Below, piece by piece: positions 33,623 through 44,032 of a stretch of DNA of 64,000 nucleotides; position 1 is the first letter of the stretch; each line of letters begins with the position of its first letter. A program made the position numbers and the translations under genes. The DNA is from an uncultured Gemmatimonadota bacterium (GTDB lineage: Bacteria > JAAXHH01), in NCBI GenBank assembly GCA_951812955.1, contig OX638340.1:32001-96000 (forward strand). The letters are read 5' to 3'. The notes beneath the pieces are model-generated. The model was not told where the DNA came from and made no database searches. It saw nothing but the letters and a program-made list of their open reading frames with translations.

Positions 33623-34693
33623 CTATTGACGAGCATTCGTCAGGTCTTCCAATTCATCTTCTTTGTAGGTGGCAGGTACCCATTCACGCGACAGGTATGG
33701 CTTGTCAATTTCGTCCAACTGTAATGCATCACGGTACCATTTGGGTAGGCCAGCTGTCGGCGGATTATCTGGATGGTAAATCGGCCGGTTCCATTGCGGC
33801 ATGCCGACTTCCGGCCAATGATCCTTGTCGTACTTCATAGGATATACCCACCAGAGTCCCAAATTAGATTCAACCAGGAAAATCTCGTCAGGCAAATAAG
33901 TACGCCCAGCAAGTAGAGTTGGTAACTGGTTCCCGATGAGGTCGAATCTCGTATGAGCTGCGTCCTGGCTTTCTAAAACCAGGACGGTTCGTGCTCCATC
34001 AGCACGACACTTCGCCAACTTTGGAAACTTGTCAGCAAAAGCTCTACGGATCCGTTCCGTCCGACAGCTTTCCAAGTCTTCGGGATAGTCAAGTACCGTT
34101 TGAACAAAGCCCGGCTTTCGTCCTGCCTTAATCCCATTCCGCCACCTCAGCAATTCGACTGTACAGTTTATACACGAGAGATCGTCTTTGATGCTATCGT
34201 CGGGAAAACAGTAAAGGCTGATTGGGATTCCATGGCAGTCGATAGGTAAAGACAGTAAGGTATTCCTCTCGTACATGGTCTGGGCACTGCTTAGAATCCA
34301 TTCGGCAAGGTTCTTCAAAGCCCTAACTCGTTTGACTTTCCCCCTGGGCAGACAAACATCTGTTGGTACTTGAAGCACGTAGTACATGGGATCTGGTAAC
34401 TGGCCGGCGAGGCTTTGTATCAAGTACTGTCTAATCTCCACGACGGTTAACTCAGTTTTAATATTGTTCTCAAAGGGTTCAATTATTGTGTGCTCAATCG
34501 CGTATTCTTGTTCACCCAATTTCATACGCAATTCCACTGGCGGCCCTACTCGATCACTCTCAGGATGACGTATTTCAGATCGTTTCTTCCGAGTGCGTCT
34601 TTCCATAGTCTTCACAACCGCGTCGCACGCCTTGCCCTCGTTTTTAGGTACGATTACGTGCGGTTTACTGTATGGAGTCTCGTTATTCTTCAT
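33623..34693 (-). CDS. Hypothetical protein at the island edge
   Basis: 356 aa, low GC, no recognisable motifs. Standalone gene with intergenic regions of 450 nt or more on both sides. Confidence 0.4.
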   Translation of the reverse strand: MKNNETPYSKPHVIVPKNEGKACDAVVKTMERRTRKKRSEIRHPESDRVGPPVELRMKLGEQEYAIEHTIIEPFENNIKTELTVVEIRQYLIQSLAGQLPDPMYYVLQVPTDVCLPRGKVKRVRALKNLAEWILSSAQTMYERNTLLSLPIDCHGIPISLYCFPDDSIKDDLSCINCTVELLRWRNGIKAGRKPGFVQTVLDYPEDLESCRTERIRRAFADKFPKLAKCRADGARTVLVLESQDAAHTRFDLIGNQLPTLLAGRTYLPDEIFLVESNLGLWWVYPMKYDKDHWPEVGMPQWNRPIYHPDNPPTAGLPKWYRDALQLDEIDKPYLSREWVPATYKEDELEDLTNARQ

Positions 34694-35149: not shown

Positions 35150-35635
35150 TCACAAGTTGTTTGTACGTCGGAGTAATTTGGATGATACCCAACTCCATGC
35201 TTTCCAAACAAACGAGGTTTTAGTTAGTAAGCCTTGCTCTTTATCAGTCTCCATACGGTCATCGGAGTTGAAAAACCGGTTGATTTCCAATCTATGGTTA
35301 CTTCGCTCCTCAAGAATCTCACGTGTAGACCATCGGCGTGACCAATGAACTTTGTTATTTTCGATCCAATAATGTGATTGACACTCCTCACTCCAATTTC
35401 CCACAGAGGGCCGGAGACTTATAGATAACCCATTGTAAATAAACGCCCACCCAGTGGGATGTAACGGTGTGTTTATCTCGCTACCACACCCACATGCACA
35501 TTTATGGATTACAGTACGGTACTTCAGCGAAATGTAAATTCGACCGTCTTCTAAACGGTTGGGTACAACATCCGAGAAGACCGGGGTAAATTCAGTCGTT
35601 TTTGAAGACCGTTCTAATCGTTTTGTTTTGCACAC
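35150..35635 (-). CDS. Small Cys-rich (HKCACGCG) predicted metal-binding protein, last gene of the E1/Ubl operon
   Basis: 161 aa. Its start overlaps the E1 gene stop by about 22 nt. CxCxCx cluster plus two further Cys residues. Confidence 0.45.
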   Translation of the reverse strand: MCKTKRLERSSKTTEFTPVFSDVVPNRLEDGRIYISLKYRTVIHKCACGCGSEINTPLHPTGWAFIYNGLSISLRPSVGNWSEECQSHYWIENNKVHWSRRWSTREILEERSNHRLEINRFFNSDDRMETDKEQGLLTKTSFVWKAWSWVSSKLLRRTNNL

Positions 35636-36831
35636 TCGACGTAGTCCCGGTTTATTATCTTGTTTCCGTCCATTATATATCCGGAATCACCCTCATGAAC
35701 TAAGTCTTGAAATACACCTCGGATTTTCTTCCATTTTATTACTGCCAATGCTGCATTGAGGGCGTTTAGTTCTGCCAATTGTATGTTTCTTTCGTACTCT
35801 CCAACATCTCCTCCTGCCATATCGATACGATTCTTCTCTGTCACATGGCCCCTATTGCCCGGTTCACTAGTAGTCGTTCGGAGTATCCCGCCTAGTCTAT
35901 CTCCTTCACGATAAATCCCCATCCCGGTATCAATACAAACGCTCTCGGCATCTTCGCAAATCCTAAATATAGATTGTTTTATGGCATGGCCATCAATACA
36001 CAGGAAAACTGTATCGTGTCCTTTTAACTCATTAACGTTTTCCTCCACAATCTTAGTGGGATGTGCAACAATACCGCGACGCATACGACTGTAGCGTTCG
36101 AAATGAAACTCTGATTTGATGGGGCCTCCTTCCAATTCTTCAACCGCTACTGCTCCCGGTGCTCGAAATGAGTTGTGCTGAAGAAAACGGTCATCGTCAT
36201 ACAGATGGATCTCTTTAACCCATGTCTTAGCAACATAGTCGAGAACGTAAGCCCCGGTCCCACCTAAACCAACAATTGCTACAGTCTCCCCTTCCAATCT
36301 CGAAGATATATCTGTTGTATTTTGACGGGCTGACGCTGTTTCCATAAACGCGAATACATTCGAATTGCTCTCGGATTTCGCGACTTTCCACTTCTGCGCC
36401 GACGTTGACGAGTCGATTTTCCTAGCTTCTCGCGTTATGATTTCAATATAGGTTCTTACTTTGTGTTCATAATCTATGTACCGCCCGCCTTCCGGCTTGG
36501 CTGAAAACATATAGGTTAACTTTAGACCATTGCTCAGAATCTGGTTGTGGCCGCTTTCACCCAGAACCTCAAGCTTCTGTGAATTCCCGTCATACGGAAA
36601 TTCTCCTGTCCAATAGGCCACGTGGTCACCTGGTTGACTAGTTCTCTCGCCTCTGAGGTCAAGTTGCATTACTAATGTTGCCTCTGCAATTCCTCCAACA
36701 CTGGTAACATAAGGCACATCTTGTATTAGAAGGTAGCCATCTATAAATCGGATTGTATATCCGGATTCCTCTATGCGTTTCAGATCCGTATTACGAGCGA
36801 TCAGTGCGTGTGACATTGAATACTGTCCCAT
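35614..36831 (-). CDS. E1-like ThiF/MoeB-family adenylyltransferase with a cysteine-free N-terminal domain of about 190 aa (possible E2/UEV-like)
   Basis: ThiF Rossmann motif VAIVGLGGTGAYVLDYVAKTWVKEIHLYDDD. The N-terminal half contains no Cys. Confidence 0.7.
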   Translation of the reverse strand: MGQYSMSHALIARNTDLKRIEESGYTIRFIDGYLLIQDVPYVTSVGGIAEATLVMQLDLRGERTSQPGDHVAYWTGEFPYDGNSQKLEVLGESGHNQILSNGLKLTYMFSAKPEGGRYIDYEHKVRTYIEIITREARKIDSSTSAQKWKVAKSESNSNVFAFMETASARQNTTDISSRLEGETVAIVGLGGTGAYVLDYVAKTWVKEIHLYDDDRFLQHNSFRAPGAVAVEELEGGPIKSEFHFERYSRMRRGIVAHPTKIVEENVNELKGHDTVFLCIDGHAIKQSIFRICEDAESVCIDTGMGIYREGDRLGGILRTTTSEPGNRGHVTEKNRIDMAGGDVGEYERNIQLAELNALNAALAVIKWKKIRGVFQDLVHEGDSGYIMDGNKIINRDYVECAKQND

Positions 36832-37060
36832 CCTTTATCTTCACATTTTCGCCTTCGCTCAAACCACCTTCTTGTTCACGTCCACCACCTTCATAAAACA
36901 GCACTGTGTAACTAATTAAAGCGCCACGACCACCATCCGGGTAAGCTAAATCCACTATTTCGTCAAAAGTCACTTCGTCATGGTCTACGGTGTACGGACG
37001 TGCATTGATTATGATATCAAAACCCTTGTTCTCTAGACTTTGCTGAGGTTCTTTTTCCAT
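36791..37060 (-). CDS. Small beta-grasp ubiquitin-like protein, multiubiquitin-family-like
   Basis: About 89 aa from the internal ATG (MEKEPQQ). Pattern FDIIINARPYTV..VTFDEIVDLA...ENVKIKDGTVFNVTRTDRS resembles the Multi_ubiq family. Its 3' end overlaps the E1 start. Confidence 0.45.
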   Translation of the reverse strand: MEKEPQQSLENKGFDIIINARPYTVDHDEVTFDEIVDLAYPDGGRGALISYTVLFYEGGGREQEGGLSEGENVKIKDGTVFNVTRTDRS

Positions 37061-37089
37061 ATTAATGGCTTCCGCCTCCTTATCGGGAT

Positions 37090-37629
37090 TCAGGCTATGT
37101 CCCTGATGCCCAATGTCAACCCTCCTGAGCGAACGAATTCCCTCCATAGAGGTGACAACAATTGAGCTGCAACTGGAGCTTCACGAGAAGAAAGTATAAT
37201 TTGTAATTCTCTCCTTTCATCTAAAGGTGCCTCTTTCCATATATTGTACAAATCCCAGCAGTTTCCGTCCGTCAAAATACCGTACCTTACCCCGACCTCA
37301 GTACAGTATGTCAACATCTGAGTGCGGTGTGTGTTGAGATCCTCGTTCAGTTTTTTTGCCTCGACTAGAACCAGTGGCTTTCTATCTTCTCCAAGTAATG
37401 CGTAGTCAACACGCTGATTCGCTTGATTTCCTGTACGGAATTCAACTTCTACATGCTCTACGATGCTAACGTCCCAAGCAAGGGCTTTCAATACCGGATC
37501 CACTAATACATTCCTTGTCCTTATCTCATTTTTCTGGAGGTATTCTCCGTGTTTTACTATTACCTCACGTGCTCGTTGTAGCGTGCTTACCAAGGGTTCT
37601 AACAAATCAGTCATAAACTCCCTCACCAC
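37090..37629 (-). CDS. PD-(D/E)XK restriction-endonuclease-like protein (HsdR N-terminal-domain-like), first gene of the operon
   Basis: 179 aa. RVDYALLGEDRKPLVLVEAKKL gives the D...EAK catalytic motif, followed by QMLTY...GILTDG. Confidence 0.6.
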   Translation of the reverse strand: MVREFMTDLLEPLVSTLQRAREVIVKHGEYLQKNEIRTRNVLVDPVLKALAWDVSIVEHVEVEFRTGNQANQRVDYALLGEDRKPLVLVEAKKLNEDLNTHRTQMLTYCTEVGVRYGILTDGNCWDLYNIWKEAPLDERRELQIILSSREAPVAAQLLSPLWREFVRSGGLTLGIRDIA

Positions 37630-37982: not shown

Positions 37983-38351
37983 ATGAAATGGGAAGTCGAT
38001 TTCCATCCGGCGTTTGATCCCGAGTTTGCCGCCATGGCACTGAAGGTGCAGGACGAACTGCTTACACAAGCAAAGCTCTTGGAGGAGTTCGGACCAACAT
38101 TAGGTCGTCCGCGGGTGGATACGCTAAATGGTTCGCGGCATGCTAATATGAAGGAACTTCGTTTTACTATGACTGGCGGAGTCTGGCGGGTCGCATTTGC
38201 TTTCGACCCCGAACGTAAGGCCATGCTACTGGTTGCCGGCGATAAATCGGGAGTCGGTGAACAACGGTTCTACCAGCAACTGATCAGGAAGGCGGATCAC
38301 CGCTTCGATCTACATCTTGAACTGTTGAAAGCTGAGAGGAGGCCAAGATGA
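37983..38351 (+). CDS. Type II toxin, RelE/HigB-like (phage Gp49-like addiction-module killer)
   Basis: 122 aa. KELRFTMTGGVWRVAFAFDPERKAMLLVAGDK matches the HigB/Gp49 family pattern. Confidence 0.7.
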   Translation: MKWEVDFHPAFDPEFAAMALKVQDELLTQAKLLEEFGPTLGRPRVDTLNGSRHANMKELRFTMTGGVWRVAFAFDPERKAMLLVAGDKSGVGEQRFYQQLIRKADHRFDLHLELLKAERRPR

Positions 38352-38698
38352 GTACGTTGACGGACAGAATGGACAAGCTGTCCCCGTCCCGACGGAAGAA
38401 GGTAGAAGAACGGGCCAGGGCGTTGATCGCCGAAGAAATGTCGCTACGGGACTTGCGCAAGGCTCGAAAGCAGACGCAGATGCGGGTCGCCGAGAAGCTC
38501 GGGATCAATCAGGAAAACGTGTCCCGCCTTGAACAGCGCAGTGATCTCTTGATTTCCACCCTCAGCGGCTATGTCGAGGCGATGGGGGGTAAACTGAGTC
38601 TGGTGGCGGAGTTTCCGGACCGGCCGCCAGTGGCGCTGACTGGCATTGCGGCACTCGACGACCTTTTGGAGCGGCCTGCAGAATCTCGTACCGGATGA
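38348..38698 (+). CDS. HTH (XRE-family) antitoxin, HigA-like
   Basis: 116 aa. HTH region MSLRDLRKARKQTQMRVAEKLGINQENVSRLEQ. 4-nt ATGA overlap with the toxin gene. Confidence 0.7.
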   Translation: MSTLTDRMDKLSPSRRKKVEERARALIAEEMSLRDLRKARKQTQMRVAEKLGINQENVSRLEQRSDLLISTLSGYVEAMGGKLSLVAEFPDRPPVALTGIAALDDLLERPAESRTG

Positions 38699-38964: not shown

Positions 38965-40140
38965 TCATCCACTAGGCGTTCGTCCACCGACCTCCGTCGA
39001 GATTTGTAGAATATACATCAGTGACGGATCGGATTTGAGGAGAATGGCCCGCAGCTGTTCGTCGGTTAGCTTTGTCTCCAATTCGTGGACCCGGTTGAAA
39101 AACTCGATCAGCTTCACCAGTGCTTTGGTGTCTTGGATCACGAATTCAGACAGCGGATCGTTGTACAACTCCCGACAGACGTACAGTACCCTCGCTCGAC
39201 GGGTTGGCTTGCCCTCATGTAGCAGATCCTTCTGATTAGCTAGGCTCAGAATCCATGCAGTAACTAGATCGTCGGGGGCTAATCGTCGGAGCAAATGGTT
39301 CCACAGCTCCCTGAGGGAGGTCAGAATGTGCCGTGCCCGGTCGGCACTGTTTCCATTCAGGGCATCTCGAGCGCCGATGTATGGCCCAGCGAGACTTGGA
39401 TCGACCTGTTGCAGCAGAATGATGCAGTCGGATGTTTCTAACTCTGCCTCGGCGACAAACTGGAATTCCGTTTCGGCCTCTTCTTCGTCCCGTTCACCCC
39501 AGGGGCGAAGAGTTTTGAGCGCGAAGCTGGTAGTGTAGATTTCACGAGTGGCGCCTGGCAAAACGAAAGCAGGTAAGCGCGTAATGTCCGAGACCTCCCG
39601 CAGTGAACCGGCCAAACTTCCATATGAGGCAGCCACCTGGGCAATCGAACTCTCCAGCCCTGAAATGGCGGGCATCTTGATTTGGAATTGACTCCCTATG
39701 GCCTTGAAATCGATGTTCGCCATGAGTCGTTCCGTGGCGATCAATTGCAAAGAAGTATCGCCCAGGGCCAACTTAGCGGATGCTTGAAGCTGGAAAAGTT
39801 GGGAAACTCCCTGTTGAAGAAGATTCGACTGGTCAAGCCAGGATTCATGAGTGGTATGCAGACTCTCGGCAATCCAGTTAGAAGCGGTAGTCTGTTTGAT
39901 CACATCATGCCAGTGTTGATTGGCGTTGGCGATCTCTTTAATCCCGGCCACTGCTTCAGGTATTTCGAGGGCACGACTGATTTCCATTTGATGGAGACGG
40001 AATGGTTCTATCGTGCGTTCTAACTGTTCTATAACGCCTAGGTAGGATGGCTTGGCCAAACGGTTGGAAGCCTCCATGTCCTGACGGAGTTTGCCGATGG
40101 CGGATTTTGCGGACATCAGATCTTCGGAGAGAATATCCAT
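38965..40140 (-). CDS. Hypothetical protein, third gene downstream of SIR2-HerA
   Basis: 391 aa soluble protein with no recognised motifs. 83 nt downstream of herA on the same strand. Confidence 0.45.
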   Translation of the reverse strand: MDILSEDLMSAKSAIGKLRQDMEASNRLAKPSYLGVIEQLERTIEPFRLHQMEISRALEIPEAVAGIKEIANANQHWHDVIKQTTASNWIAESLHTTHESWLDQSNLLQQGVSQLFQLQASAKLALGDTSLQLIATERLMANIDFKAIGSQFQIKMPAISGLESSIAQVAASYGSLAGSLREVSDITRLPAFVLPGATREIYTTSFALKTLRPWGERDEEEAETEFQFVAEAELETSDCIILLQQVDPSLAGPYIGARDALNGNSADRARHILTSLRELWNHLLRRLAPDDLVTAWILSLANQKDLLHEGKPTRRARVLYVCRELYNDPLSEFVIQDTKALVKLIEFFNRVHELETKLTDEQLRAILLKSDPSLMYILQISTEVGGRTPSG

Positions 40141-40223: not shown

Positions 40224-41915
40224 TCATCGGCGCTGATATCTCCAACGCTTAACAACATCTTGAATTTCCGAGTCAGGAGTTGCATCGTTTTGCCACCCCT
40301 TATCGAAGTCAATGTCATTTGATTTCGGTAGCTGATCAGGATTTAAATCACGTATTAGGATGCGCGACGGCAACATTGCAGCTTGGCCAACGAAAATTGC
40401 CTCTTGCCTCCGTAAACCAGAAAGCATCTTTGTCAGACCAGACATCGAATCTGGTAGAATGGATCGAACATGCTCCCTGTCGGCGTCATTGGTGATTCGC
40501 ATAACAATCCAGCTATTGCATTGTGAAAGAACCGTTGCCTCAACTTCGCTTGGGCGCTGGGATACCAACAGGAGCCCTACACCATACTTTCGACCTTCCT
40601 TAGCAACACGCCTGATTGCTTCTTGAGCAGCCTCATATTGCGCTTCGCCCCGATTTGGAACGTAGCGATGAGCTTCTTCACATACCAGTAAAACTGGGTC
40701 AGATTCGCGCTCTGATTGGGTTTGCCAAATCTTCAGATTGAATAAAGTTCGAGCAATTACCGCACTTGATACACCGGCTACTTCATTGGGGACACCGGAC
40801 AGATCTACTATTCTTGGTTGAGACCCATCCCCGATAAGTTGCTTGATAACAGTAAGAAAAGGATCGTTATTTTCCCATTCTGACATCATGAATCGGAGTC
40901 GAGCATCGGTCATTAAGACTTCGAGTTTTTGGAGTATCGAGTTATGAGAATCTTGTTTGCTGAGCGCAGTTGGCTTATCCGCTTCAATCTTTTCTATAAG
41001 CCTCGATAACTTGTATGGTACGGGGGAATCAACAGTTATGAGATTGACATCAAGACCTAGCTGATGCGCACCTTCTTCGCGGGCGTAGATTAAGGCTCTC
41101 TTTACGATGTTAGCTTGTGAGGTCGCAACAAATTCAGTTCTTCCGATCAACAAGGCAACCGTCTCTTGAAAGTTCAAGAGCCAGTATGGAAGTGTTAGTG
41201 TTCCGTCATCAGAGGAAAGTTTAGTATGATCAGTAAATGCGCTGCCGTATTCACCATGGGGGTCGAGTATAATAACCCTGGGCTTCCATTTCGTATATGA
41301 TCTAGTGTCACCTCTATCAAGAATACTGTGAATGATAGCTGCGACCGTACCTGACTTGCCAGCGCCAGTGGAGCCGAGAACGGCTGTGTGTTTACCAAGT
41401 AGTTCATTCAAATCTGCAAAACATGGGGTCCCGCCTGAACCTACATGCTGCCCGAGCTGAACAACGGCACTTTTCGCTTTCCCGTAAATAAAACGCAATT
41501 CAGCTTTTGGAGTCAGATAGACAGTTTGCTGTGGGAGTGGATAGGTTGATACCCCACGTTCAAAAAAAAGCTTCCATTCACTAGATGTCCCATGAATCCA
41601 TTCGCCTTCGCCGAACAGGTCTGCTTCGACGATTCTTTCATCCGAAGATGATGCTGACACCAATCCTCGTTCTGCTTGAAATTCTGATTTCATCCTTAGT
41701 CGGCCGACCAACGCGTAGACGGTTTGACGCCCGAAATGGACTTTGACAATGGAACCAAATTGTCCGATGGGATAGGTTTCTCCCGCATACACACGCGAGA
41801 GTTCAGAAAGAGTCGGATTTAACTCGGCAACAAGGTGAGATCCATCAACTTCAATTATCTTGCCGATTGCCAGATTCTCAATTGGCTCATTGGGATTGCG
41901 AGTCGAAACACTCAT
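40224..41915 (-). CDS. HerA/FtsK-like ATPase (DUF87) of a SIR2-HerA defence pair
   Basis: Walker A LGSTGAGKSGT. Walker B LLVCEEAHRY, followed by LLLVSQRPSEV. 563 aa. 4-nt start/stop overlap with the sir2 gene. Confidence 0.8.
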   Translation of the reverse strand: MSVSTRNPNEPIENLAIGKIIEVDGSHLVAELNPTLSELSRVYAGETYPIGQFGSIVKVHFGRQTVYALVGRLRMKSEFQAERGLVSASSSDERIVEADLFGEGEWIHGTSSEWKLFFERGVSTYPLPQQTVYLTPKAELRFIYGKAKSAVVQLGQHVGSGGTPCFADLNELLGKHTAVLGSTGAGKSGTVAAIIHSILDRGDTRSYTKWKPRVIILDPHGEYGSAFTDHTKLSSDDGTLTLPYWLLNFQETVALLIGRTEFVATSQANIVKRALIYAREEGAHQLGLDVNLITVDSPVPYKLSRLIEKIEADKPTALSKQDSHNSILQKLEVLMTDARLRFMMSEWENNDPFLTVIKQLIGDGSQPRIVDLSGVPNEVAGVSSAVIARTLFNLKIWQTQSERESDPVLLVCEEAHRYVPNRGEAQYEAAQEAIRRVAKEGRKYGVGLLLVSQRPSEVEATVLSQCNSWIVMRITNDADREHVRSILPDSMSGLTKMLSGLRRQEAIFVGQAAMLPSRILIRDLNPDQLPKSNDIDFDKGWQNDATPDSEIQDVVKRWRYQRR

Positions 41916-43072
41916 CTTTCACCTCCAAGCAGGCGGGTCAAGTTTTCAAATTTCCACCAAAGTAGGTCGGTGTCGGATGGTGCTTTTTTGCTGCCGTGAA
42001 AGAAGCCAAGATTAGCAAAAATAAGTACTTGCTCGGTTATGGAGTCATCATCATGCCATCTCTTAAGTAGGCCTTTTGGTTCATCATCAGAGGTAAACAC
42101 CACGACGGTAAGACGACCGTCAGATTCACGTAACGCCCGGTCGATTTCGAGATTGATGTGTGAATCACCAAAGCGGTACCCGCACGTAATCAGTATTTTT
42201 TGCGAACCTGAAACAGCCGTTAGTGCTTTCCGCCCATATTCTGCCAATTGAGCATAGGGGTCTCTTTGAGTTTCACGGTATTTGGTGGATGCTGGCCAAA
42301 TGAGAATCTTGTTTTTACCCCCGGATTGTACTTTGACATTACCGGAAACTCGGCGAGGGAGTGGATCACCATCGAACTCGCACCAGTTTATTGAACCGTG
42401 CAGTTTGAAGATCCTCGACGAGAGTCCATCACGCTCAAAATCCGCAGGATTCCACCATCCGGTGACTCCGCCTTCCAGACCATCTGAAAAGGAAACTCGC
42501 TCAAGCGCGAGTGCATCTTCAAGAAGCGTGTCGTAGTTGAGGCAGAGATAGTCCACACGATCAAAGTTGCCCGTTTTACCAGGCCGAATTGGGCGATGAA
42601 CCGCCTTTACGAATTTGCGATGAACCACTACATCGATTTGCTCGTCATTGTGCTCGATTATATTGGAAATGATACGCTTTATATCTTCTGCAGATTCCCT
42701 TAGTTGCTGGCCAGAATATCGATTGTCTTTGATAGTGATCTGGTCATCGGTTGCGCCTCGCTCCGCCCTTCTTTCAGCGATGGCCAGAAGGTCGATTATT
42801 TCACTAAGGTAGTCCTCAATATCTGGATCACTCGCACCGGTGAAACCTTCCTTAATTCCCTTGAGGATCTCTGTGGTATAGTCACTCAAAGCACCTATTT
42901 CCAGTACTTTAGTAGTTAGTTCTTCCATCAATGGTAAACCCGCGCATTTGCTACAACCTGCACCAATTAGGAACACTTTCCCATGCTGGACCATAAGTTC
43001 GTCTAGCGTATCATAAGCTTCAACTAATTGAGGGGTATCCCATATTGCGTCAAGATTGTCAGGTGCGCTCAT
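41912..43072 (-). CDS. SIR2-family (DHS-like NAD-binding) protein, putative NADase effector
   Basis: VFLIGAGCSKCAGLP (a sirtuin GAGxS-like motif) and KLHGSINW. 386 aa. Confidence 0.75.
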   Translation of the reverse strand: MSAPDNLDAIWDTPQLVEAYDTLDELMVQHGKVFLIGAGCSKCAGLPLMEELTTKVLEIGALSDYTTEILKGIKEGFTGASDPDIEDYLSEIIDLLAIAERRAERGATDDQITIKDNRYSGQQLRESAEDIKRIISNIIEHNDEQIDVVVHRKFVKAVHRPIRPGKTGNFDRVDYLCLNYDTLLEDALALERVSFSDGLEGGVTGWWNPADFERDGLSSRIFKLHGSINWCEFDGDPLPRRVSGNVKVQSGGKNKILIWPASTKYRETQRDPYAQLAEYGRKALTAVSGSQKILITCGYRFGDSHINLEIDRALRESDGRLTVVVFTSDDEPKGLLKRWHDDDSITEQVLIFANLGFFHGSKKAPSDTDLLWWKFENLTRLLGGER

Positions 43073-43405
43073 ATTAACCCTTTCTCATTTTATCATACTC
43101 CAATTTCCTGACTTCATTGCTATTCATGTGTCGCTATGCCATTAACTTCAACAACACGTCGTCTAGACCAAACCGATCATTCAAGGATTTAGCTATCCGA
43201 ACGAGTTTCGGACTTGGTCCGGAGTAAATAGAGAATCAGTCGCCCAAAGTGAGAGAATGTGTGACGGACAGGGAAAATCGACGATGTGGAACGGTTGTTC
43301 GAGAGGACATTAACAGACGCAATCTCTTAGAAACAAGTGCAAAAAACCCGTCATCCCCGAGAATGAGCCAGACCCTAGAGAGACGGGTTGTCTTTTTAGA
43401 ATTGA

Positions 43406-43766
43406 TGGAGGTGGGGGGAATCGAACCCCCGTCCGAAAGTGCCTAAGCGGAAACTTCTACATGCGTAGCCTGTTGTTTAATCTCGTTCCGGAGAACTCCA
43501 GCAGGCAGGATTTAACCGGAACCAGCCTCAGTTGAGTCTCGCCTGGCGCCCTGAGGCGCGACGCCCGGCCAGCCTGCTTTATCGACGCTTTTGACCATCC
43601 CGCAGGCGGGGCTGATCAAAAACGGGCCGGCCTAAGTTACCTTAGGCAGCCATTGCATACGAAGGTTCGTCTGCAGATAAATTGTTCCCAATGGTTTTAC
43701 GAGGTTATCGGGGACCTCGGCACGCGATTCCCGCCGCATCCACTCCCGTCGAATCCTTTCACCCCC
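43406..43766 (-). ncRNA. ssrA: tmRNA (SsrA); the predicted tag reading frame encodes ADEPSYAMAA followed by TAA
   Basis: On the minus strand the 5' end reads GGGGGTGAAAGGATTCGACGGG and the 3' tRNA-like end reads TTTCGGACGGGGGTTCGATTCCCCCCACCTCCA. The internal frame is GCA GAC GAA CCT TCG TAT GCA ATG GCT GCC TAA. Confidence 0.85.
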
Positions 43767-43880
43767 ATGTCAAAGAACATAGGCCATTTGGGCGCTTCTG
43801 TCAAATTCGCCCGGCCGCGATGGTTCGGTTGCATCATGATACGGCAGCACCATGGTACGGCTGCATCGCGGTTTGGCCAG

Positions 43881-43953
<73 letters not shown>

Positions 43954-43959
43954 ATTCCA

Positions 43960-44032
43960 TGAGCGCGGAAGGAATCGAACCTTCGACCCACAGATTAAAA
44001 GTCTGTTGCTCTGCCAACTGAGCTACGCGCCC
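43960..44032 (-). tRNA. tRNA-Lys (anticodon TTT)
   Basis: Minus strand: GGGCGCGTAGCTCAGTTGGCAGAGCAACAGACTTTTAATCTGT...GGTTCGATTCCTTCCGCGCTCA. Confidence 0.85.

Follow-up and report, generated by a model that had tools for sequence, protein, structure and literature searches.

A cysteine-free, predicted serine-type E2 domain in a Type II Bub operon of an uncultured Gemmatimonadota bacterium

We analysed a stretch of 64,000 nucleotides (hereafter the window) from an uncultured Gemmatimonadota bacterium (NCBI GenBank assembly GCA_951812955.1, contig OX638340.1, positions 32,001 to 96,000 of the forward strand), in which three consecutive, overlapping and co-directional genes at 35150-37147 on the minus strand encode, in the order of transcription and as assigned by Pfam, a Multi_ubiq protein, a fusion of DUF6791 with ThiF, and a DUF6527 protein. 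Judged by these domains and their order, the locus is a Type II Bub operon (formerly 6E.2/DUF6527) with bubBD as its middle gene; the studied example of this type, in E. coli ZDHYS365, comprises BubA, BubBD (WP_063617865.1) and BubE (Ye, Gong, Chambers & Corbett, bioRxiv 10.1101/2024.11.21.623953; hereafter Ye et al., 2024). A preliminary description of the window had drawn attention to the N-terminal part of the middle protein, which was said to contain no cysteine and was proposed to be an inactive E2 (ubiquitin-conjugating) or adaptor module. An E2-like module devoid of Cys is a real puzzle, but one that was already explained in 2024 by the Tyr/Ser oxyester cascade of Bub. In light of the features described below, we consider it highly probable that the window protein is a BubBD of Type II whose E2 domain is of the serine type.

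The bubBD open reading frame (ORF) translates into 405 residues beginning MGQYSMSHALI, with Cys only at positions 278, 292, 299 and 400, and the segment 36262-36831 corresponds exactly to residues 1-190 and indeed holds no Cys. Taken by itself this absence is not unusual and constitutes weak evidence: at the Cys frequency of the 37 long ORFs in the window (1.2%) a stretch of 190 residues lacks Cys with a probability of ∼0.10, and by empirical count 17% of all 190-residue segments in these ORFs are Cys-free. The Cys-free state matters only because the domain proves E2-like. It is also a trait of the subclade to which the window belongs and not of the family, as a fully Cys-free E2 domain occurs in a minority of proteins (5 among the 90 relatives in fetched loci, 19 among 142 representatives at the 50% identity level). 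An extra N-terminal domain, as had been described, is present and spans residues ∼6-165, but the limit placed at residue 190 reaches into the E1 Rossmann fold: DUF6791 (PF20590) matches residues 16-165 (E 1.4e-41), the ThiF match begins at residue 177, and the GxGxxG loop occupies residues 188-193. The true start of bubBD is probably M6 (36816), giving a protein of 400 residues. Homologs all begin at the equivalent of M6 (MSHALIARN), the alignment to NCBIfam NF004805 (434 bits, cutoff 352) begins at residue 6, AAGGA lies ∼13 nt upstream of M6, and only M6 reproduces the 26-nt overlap between bubA and bubBD (36791-36816) that recurs in six other loci (L001-L006). Residue numbers given here are those of the 405-residue ORF.

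In the structural model the N-terminal domain, whose core has a predicted local distance difference test score (pLDDT) >90, consists of two N-terminal helices, a four-stranded meander, a β-hairpin ending in S110 and a long helix (residues 121-139), in this order. Its best structural match is the active BubB, neither a non-catalytic ubiquitin E2 variant (UEV) nor a peptide-clamp fold. The model points to an E2/UBC-like fold related to BubB, which is the fold expected of a Type II Bub protein. The preliminary description, which had suggested a UEV-like non-catalytic E2 fold, was right about the E2 fold, and no unrelated or dimerisation fold emerged; its non-catalytic or adaptor part finds no support, as a Ser-x-Lys-Pro motif and a His are both invariant in the family (see below). 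A profile of the N-terminal domain gave no match among PDB sequences, hence no sequence link to Type I BubB, an hhalign comparison of this profile with UBE2D2 was insignificant (probability 0.1%), and no UQ_con or Prok-E2 Pfam match at E<=0.1 was found in the protein.

Conservation was assessed in two sets, the first consisting of 90 sequences (the window and fetched loci) and the second of about 150 representatives at 50% identity (150 or 151 per column). In the first set H70, P79, S110, P113, R223 and Y346 are each present in 90 of 90 sequences, and position 112 is Lys in 87, the remainder having Arg. Among the representatives, His occupies column 70 in 151 of 151, Lys occupies column 112 in 136 of 151, and Ser occupies column 110 in 148 of 150, the other two (P0193 and P0269) having Cys within the same C-x-K-P motif. 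Such a Ser/Cys swap is what would be expected of a nucleophile position. The motif S110-x-K112-P113 and H70 are kept down to ∼30% identity. As E. coli-type reference we used the first 203 residues of a BubBD encoded on a 907-bp contig of Citrobacter portucalensis, on which the adjacent bubA gene encodes a protein sharing 99% identity with the BubA crystallised from E. coli ZDHYS365 (PDB 9cd2). Searches of the E. coli complete genomes by blastn with the window cassette and by megablast with the Citrobacter fragment returned no match, and tblastn of the E. coli BubA against plasmids returned matches of at most 45% identity. The motif in this fragment reads HWF-S106-N-K108-PP, and pairwise alignment (36% identity over the E2 domain, E 3e-47) equates M1, H66, S106 and K108 of the fragment with M6, H70, S110 and K112 of the window protein, respectively. 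Bub E2s carry an invariant Ser at the position of the E2 catalytic Cys, to which Type II adds an invariant Lys and an invariant His (Ye et al., 2024), and S110, K112 and H70 supply this set in the window. H123 and K124 were considered as the Lys/His partners of the Ser and rejected: position 123 is His in ∼35-40% of relatives, and the E. coli type has Gln in place of K124. P0193 and P0269 look like natural thioester-type variants of the Bub E2 domain.

The residue at position 80 is Cys in 84% of the 90 relatives, in 103 of 151 representatives and in the E. coli type (C76), and Tyr or His in the clade of the window; this position is not discussed by Ye et al. (2024). As whole clades are without Cys80 and yet keep S110, K112 and H70, the alignment suggests that Cys80 is not an essential nucleophile. 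At a guess, [FHY]-P79-X80 is the counterpart of the HPN motif of E2 enzymes; residue 80 may then lie in the Asn slot of HPN and tune oxyester versus thioester chemistry, an idea in which we place less trust than in the nuclease reading set out further below.

In the E1 half of the protein, Foldseek found ThiF, BubCD, UBA5 and MoeB at E ∼1e-9 as well as MccB and PaaA, and the best PDB sequence match was Citrobacter BubCD (E 0.0016). The crossover loop (residues ∼333-347), which ends in Y346, was modelled at pLDDT <50, and this low confidence is consistent with a mobile catalytic loop. Bub E1s have an invariant Tyr in this loop, Y342 in E. coli BubBD (Ye et al., 2024). The alignment of 90 sequences contains no invariant Cys column anywhere in BubBD, such that the E1 domain has the make-up of a Type II E1: it is without conserved Cys, and Y346 and R223 (matched to their E. 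coli counterparts by motif and numbering) are both invariant. C278 was considered as a hidden E1 Cys and rejected, as it lies in a core strand, not in the crossover loop, and is Cys in 70% of relatives.

The BubA protein of the window (PF14452, E 3.6e-14) ends in ...NVTRTDRS. In homologous loci bubA genes are called at 85-89 residues, and AAGGAGG precedes M30 of the window frame. The C-terminal residue is Ser, not Gly, in 89 of 89 relatives, in the pattern T-x-T-D-[KRQ]-S, and the alignment of window BubA with the E. coli protein of known crystal structure (9cd2), which ends ...TQTDKS, extends to the very last residue; we therefore rejected the non-Gly end as an anomaly, the characterised E. 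coli BubA having the same end. Since the last bubA codons overlap the start of bubBD by the conserved 26 nt, this tail is under dual coding constraint.

Table 1. Positions of the genes, domains and codons discussed (window coordinates, except where another locus is named).
Feature	Coordinates	Strand	Remarks
bubA	36791..37060	(-)	Multi_ubiq ubiquitin-like protein (Ubl), single β-grasp, ∼89 aa from M30; open frame up to 37147
bubBD	35614..36831	(-)	DUF6791 E2-like + ThiF E1 fusion; 405-aa ORF, probable start M6 at 36816
bubE	35150..35635	(-)	DUF6527/BubE; Pfam PF20137, E 1e-22
E2-like (UBC-superfamily) domain of BubBD	36337..36816	(-)	residues 6-165; without Cys
E1 adenylation domain of BubBD	35617..36303	(-)	ThiF/MoeB fold; residues 177-405; GxGxxG 188-193, R223, D280, D301
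S110 codon	36502..36504	(-)	proposed E2 nucleophile; Ubl~Ser oxyester candidate; codon checked
K112 codon	36496..36498	(-)	Ser-x-Lys-Pro motif; proposed E2 active-site helper
H70 codon	36622..36624	(-)	invariant His of E2-like domain; proposed helper
Y80 codon	36592..36594	(-)	directly after invariant P79; Cys in most relatives
R223 codon	36163..36165	(-)	adenylation-site Arg, motif QHNxFRxPG; Arg 90/90
Y346 codon	35794..35796	(-)	proposed E1 catalytic Tyr; Ubl~Tyr oxyester candidate
HsdR-N-terminal-like PD-(D/E)XK gene	37090..37629	(-)	29 nt upstream of bubA, same strand; ∼175 aa
HsdR-N-like genes upstream of bubA	L002 4196-4702; L008 1943-2458; L009 4200-4760; L010 4200-4736		four related metagenomic loci
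HsdR-N-like genes directly downstream of bubE	L025 7653-8201; L031 7679-8203; L085 8003-8551		three distant loci
HerA (DUF87) ATPase gene	40224-41915	(-)	PADLOC E 1.6e-138
SIR2_2 gene	41912-43072	(-)	PADLOC E 1.7e-68; 4-nt overlap with HerA gene
tmRNA gene	43403-43766	(-)	Rfam 196 bits; ARAGORN
two tRNA-Lys genes	43880-44032	(-)	

The fold, the domain and operon architecture and the conservation and alignment of the catalytic residues are the observations from which, by homology with the characterised systems of E. coli and Citrobacter, we infer all of the chemistry of the window protein, as follows. A BubBD dimer would bind BubA, a single β-grasp Ubl with a conserved terminal Ser, and the E1 domain would adenylate the BubA C-terminus (R223, D301 and the GxGxxG loop). 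The flexible crossover loop would take BubA as an oxyester on Y346 and hand it to S110 of the E2-like domain, with the help of K112 and H70; published predictions have the receiving E2 domain belong to the opposite protomer (Ye et al., 2024). The E2-like domain would then pass BubA on to a target amine, and conjugation would be reversed by BubE, a putative Zn-stabilised Ser-His peptidase. In such a scheme the absence of Cys would be the mark of a serine/tyrosine oxyester relay, not of inactivity. Bub E2 and E1 work via Ser and Tyr oxyesters, and the S106A, Y342F and R219A mutations in E. coli BubBD each abolished BubA conjugation in vitro; the ATP-dependent formation of these oxyesters and of Ubl conjugates was demonstrated for the E. 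coli and Citrobacter homologs alone (Ye et al., 2024).

Several points weigh against the assignment as a serine-type Type II BubBD: (i) the evidence for Type II is a single in-vitro assay on one homolog, to which the window protein is 36% identical over the E2 domain (Ye et al., 2024); (ii) the equivalences of Y346 with Y342 and of R223 with R219 are deduced from motif and numbering, Y346 being residue 341 counted from M6 and one off from Y342; (iii) the Cys that is common at position 80 is missing from window BubBD; (iv) for the N-terminal domain model, the best PDB match by Foldseek was insignificant (E 0.27); (v) protection from phage has yet to be demonstrated for any Bub operon (Ye et al., 2024).

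The reading proposed in the preliminary description, in which the N-terminal domain is a dead UEV-like fold that recruits BubA or substrate and the E1 transfers BubA directly to the target from the adenylate or the Tyr ester, accords with a domain lacking Cys, with the intrinsically lower reactivity of oxyesters (Ye et al., 2024), and with the prediction from earlier comparative genomics, as cited in Ye et al. (2024), that 6E E2-like proteins are inactive. The fold and the lack of Cys do fit a UEV, yet the Ser-x-Lys-Pro motif and the His are invariant in the predicted active-site region, and at the nucleophile position, where a canonical UBC E2 has its active-site Cys, there is Ser. Conservation of S110-x-K112-P113 and H70 over such distances would be unexpected for a mere scaffold, and the top structural match is an active enzyme, BubB, rather than a UEV. 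Moreover, S110 aligns with S106, the residue whose replacement by Ala in the E. coli homolog abolishes conjugates, and two relatives have Cys there. Together, the conserved Ser, Lys and His, the S106A result and the Ser-to-Cys relatives argue against a UEV-like dead domain, which we regard as improbable; on the same comparisons, E1-direct transfer would not be the favoured route.

As an alternative, the preliminary description had the downstream Cys-rich protein supply the thioester, a proposal that our comparisons do not support. In 7 diverse BubE sequences C46, C48, C50, C85, S77 and H88 are invariant (window codons checked). They match the C4 zinc site (C57/C59/C61/C99) and the catalytic dyad (S92/H102) of Citrobacter BubE. 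This serine peptidase detaches conjugated BubA and cleaves BubA fusions in vitro; BubA-target conjugates are lost when active BubE is co-expressed and are restored by inactivation of BubE (Ye et al., 2024). Akin to its Citrobacter counterpart, window BubE probably acts as a deconjugating serine peptidase. It could be argued that the thioester is in reality carried by the DUF6527 protein, as an E2- or E3-like acceptor for which the N-terminal domain of BubBD would merely be a docking site, as its four Cys are conserved and its gene directly follows the E1 gene, and a role in Ubl transfer was considered by Ye et al. (2024) before testing. However, the Cys fall into a CxCxC...C pattern which these authors assign to a structural zinc site, and the invariant S77 and H88 correspond to the dyad of a peptidase that cleaves BubA fusions and whose inactivation restores conjugates; zinc-site Cys and Ser-His dyad together render a thioester carrier very unlikely. 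Equally hard to credit is a ThiF/MoeB/MccB-type adenylation pathway for a sulfur carrier or peptide modification, with the N-terminal domain as substrate clamp and no protein conjugation, which could invoke the structural nearness of the E1 half to ThiF and MoeB (with MccB and PaaA also matched) and a BubA ending in Ser instead of Gly-Gly, but which is at odds with the lack of sulfur-transfer or biosynthetic genes nearby, with neighbours that comprise SIR2-HerA, a protein bearing a pPIWI-associated nuclease domain, and a toxin-antitoxin-like pair in a low-GC island, with the covalent conjugates formed by E. coli BubA of the same ...TDKS end, and with an N-terminal domain of E2 and not peptide-clamp fold.

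The Type II Bub assignment can be set against known systems. The window shares with the E. coli operon (i) the same three genes in the same order and in overlapping frames; (ii) an E2-E1 fusion without conserved Cys, whose E2 domain has Ser-x-Lys and His and whose E1 domain has the Tyr of the crossover loop and the Arg of the adenylation site; (iii) a BubE with C4 zinc site and Ser-His dyad; (iv) a BubA end of the form ...T-D-[KR]-S; and (v) the absence of a JAB peptidase, together with a location in a mobile/defence island at a tRNA-like gene. No JAB/JAMM peptidase is encoded in the operon, and none of 11 island proteins scanned gave a JAB match. Besides the identity of 36% between the E2 domains, the differences are that window BubA has one β-grasp domain and E. 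coli BubA three, that Tyr80 stands in place of C76, that the window has an extra upstream HsdR-N-like nuclease gene, and that the island genes scanned include neither a CapH/CapP nor a CapW regulator. As opposed to the window, Type I Bub (Citrobacter BubAB and BubCD; PDB 9ea4, 9ea5, 9ea8, 9eae, 9eav) fuses Ubl with E2 and JAB with E1, and JAB cleavage leaves its Ubl with a terminal Gly, whereas the window fuses E2 with E1, has no JAB and has a Ubl ending in Ser; the E2 domains of the two are without detectable sequence similarity (profile against PDB sequences). Cap2 of CBASS Type II (the antiphage signalling system based on cyclic oligonucleotides), an Atg7/Atg10-like E2-E1 fusion, has a catalytic Cys in both domains, unlike window BubBD with no conserved Cys, conjugates a CD-NTase and not a Ubl, and pairs with the JAB peptidase Cap3. 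PADLOC matches to Cap2 were weak, confined to the E1 part and limited to residues ∼130-300 (E 1e-6 or worse), and neither a cyclase nor a JAB gene was found among the scanned neighbours. Compared with eukaryotic UBC E2s and UEVs (UBE2D2, Ubc13/Mms2, Tsg101), the window domain lacks the catalytic Cys, a recognisable HPN and the C-terminal helix pair, and it differs from UEVs in that an invariant Ser of nucleophile type is retained along with partner Lys and His residues.

Bub crystal structures exist (9ea4 to 9eav, 9cd2) and PF20137 is named 'BubE' in the precomputed Pfam annotation; the locus is one more member of a published system, and its discovery alone changes little. What it adds is a natural, fully Cys-free E2 domain with a complete Ser/Lys/His set, which lends independent comparative support to the view that Cys80 is dispensable and the Ser is key; the few natural variants with Cys in place of the nucleophile-position Ser lead to the same view. 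This is a large family, with over 5000 homologs that have the same two Pfam domains (DUF6791 and ThiF), and a search with the N-terminal domain alone yielded 749 cluster representatives at 50% identity, in which it is almost always N-terminal in proteins of ∼395 residues. At least 587 stretches of species-representative genomes, from many bacterial phyla and a few archaea, encode a relative, and BubBD was matched in 128 plasmid records; among the matches listed, the genes annotated beneath the match comprise one with a multiubiquitin domain and, in many cases, one for DUF6527. The locus shares at most 57% identity with any sequence in species-representative genomes and 88-89% with two metagenomic contigs. 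Of the 90 fetched loci, 89 have an adjacent BubA and 87 an adjacent BubE. A scan for promoters and terminators gave nothing above shuffled expectation. On two unrelated plasmids, Acinetobacter johnsonii pXBB1-8 (L004) and Leptolyngbya boryana p1 (L005), a large gene with a UvrD-helicase domain lies immediately upstream of bubA, and its product may be a further recurrent Bub partner.

The HsdR-N-like protein encoded upstream of bubA matches Pfam HSDR_N and HSDR_N_2 (E ∼3e-7), with conserved D...EAK and QxxxY motifs. A gene of this kind adjoins the Bub cassette, with which it shares the strand, in 8 of 91 loci, the window included. DNA similarity to three related loci extends over ∼35340-37547, that is most of the four genes, and not into the flanks. 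We tentatively view the HsdR-N-like gene as a clade-specific fourth operon gene; nuclease partners are not mentioned by Ye et al. (2024). That its product functions as the fourth component of a subtype of Bub, be it an effector nuclease switched on or off by BubA conjugation or a conjugation target, is a doubtful but conceivable extension of this view; if true, it would be the first concrete output for Bub systems, and the linked gene is in any case a lead towards such an output.

The Bub cassette lies in a low-GC island that extends from ∼33.6 kb to the tmRNA 3' end, with 45-54% GC compared to 56-66% in the flanks; the tmRNA gene and two tRNA-Lys genes bound it on that side. No integrase gene was found in the island, and a direct-repeat search for its att sites returned short chance pairs only. 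Mobile elements located at genes of tRNA type are the setting of Bub operons (Ye et al., 2024), and the island context fits this pattern. By their matches and arrangement, the HerA and SIR2_2 genes form a SIR2-HerA anti-phage system. A 391-residue protein encoded at 38965-40140(-) matches, in its C-terminal part, a predicted pPIWI-associating nuclease domain (PF18165, E 1e-20), without an Argonaute/pPIWI gene visible next to it. Oriented divergently to the Bub operon are a Gp49-like (HigB/RelE-type) gene at 37983-38351(+) and a helix-turn-helix (HTH) gene at 38348-38698(+), which overlap by 4 nt; this toxin-antitoxin-like pair might instead be a local regulator. The segment 38256-38740, which includes part of the pair, has 85% DNA identity in the related locus L008. 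Downstream of bubE, an ORF of 356 residues (33623-34693, minus strand) has no Pfam or PADLOC match, and this region is likewise conserved, at 85% DNA identity, in L008, which has two shorter gene calls there.

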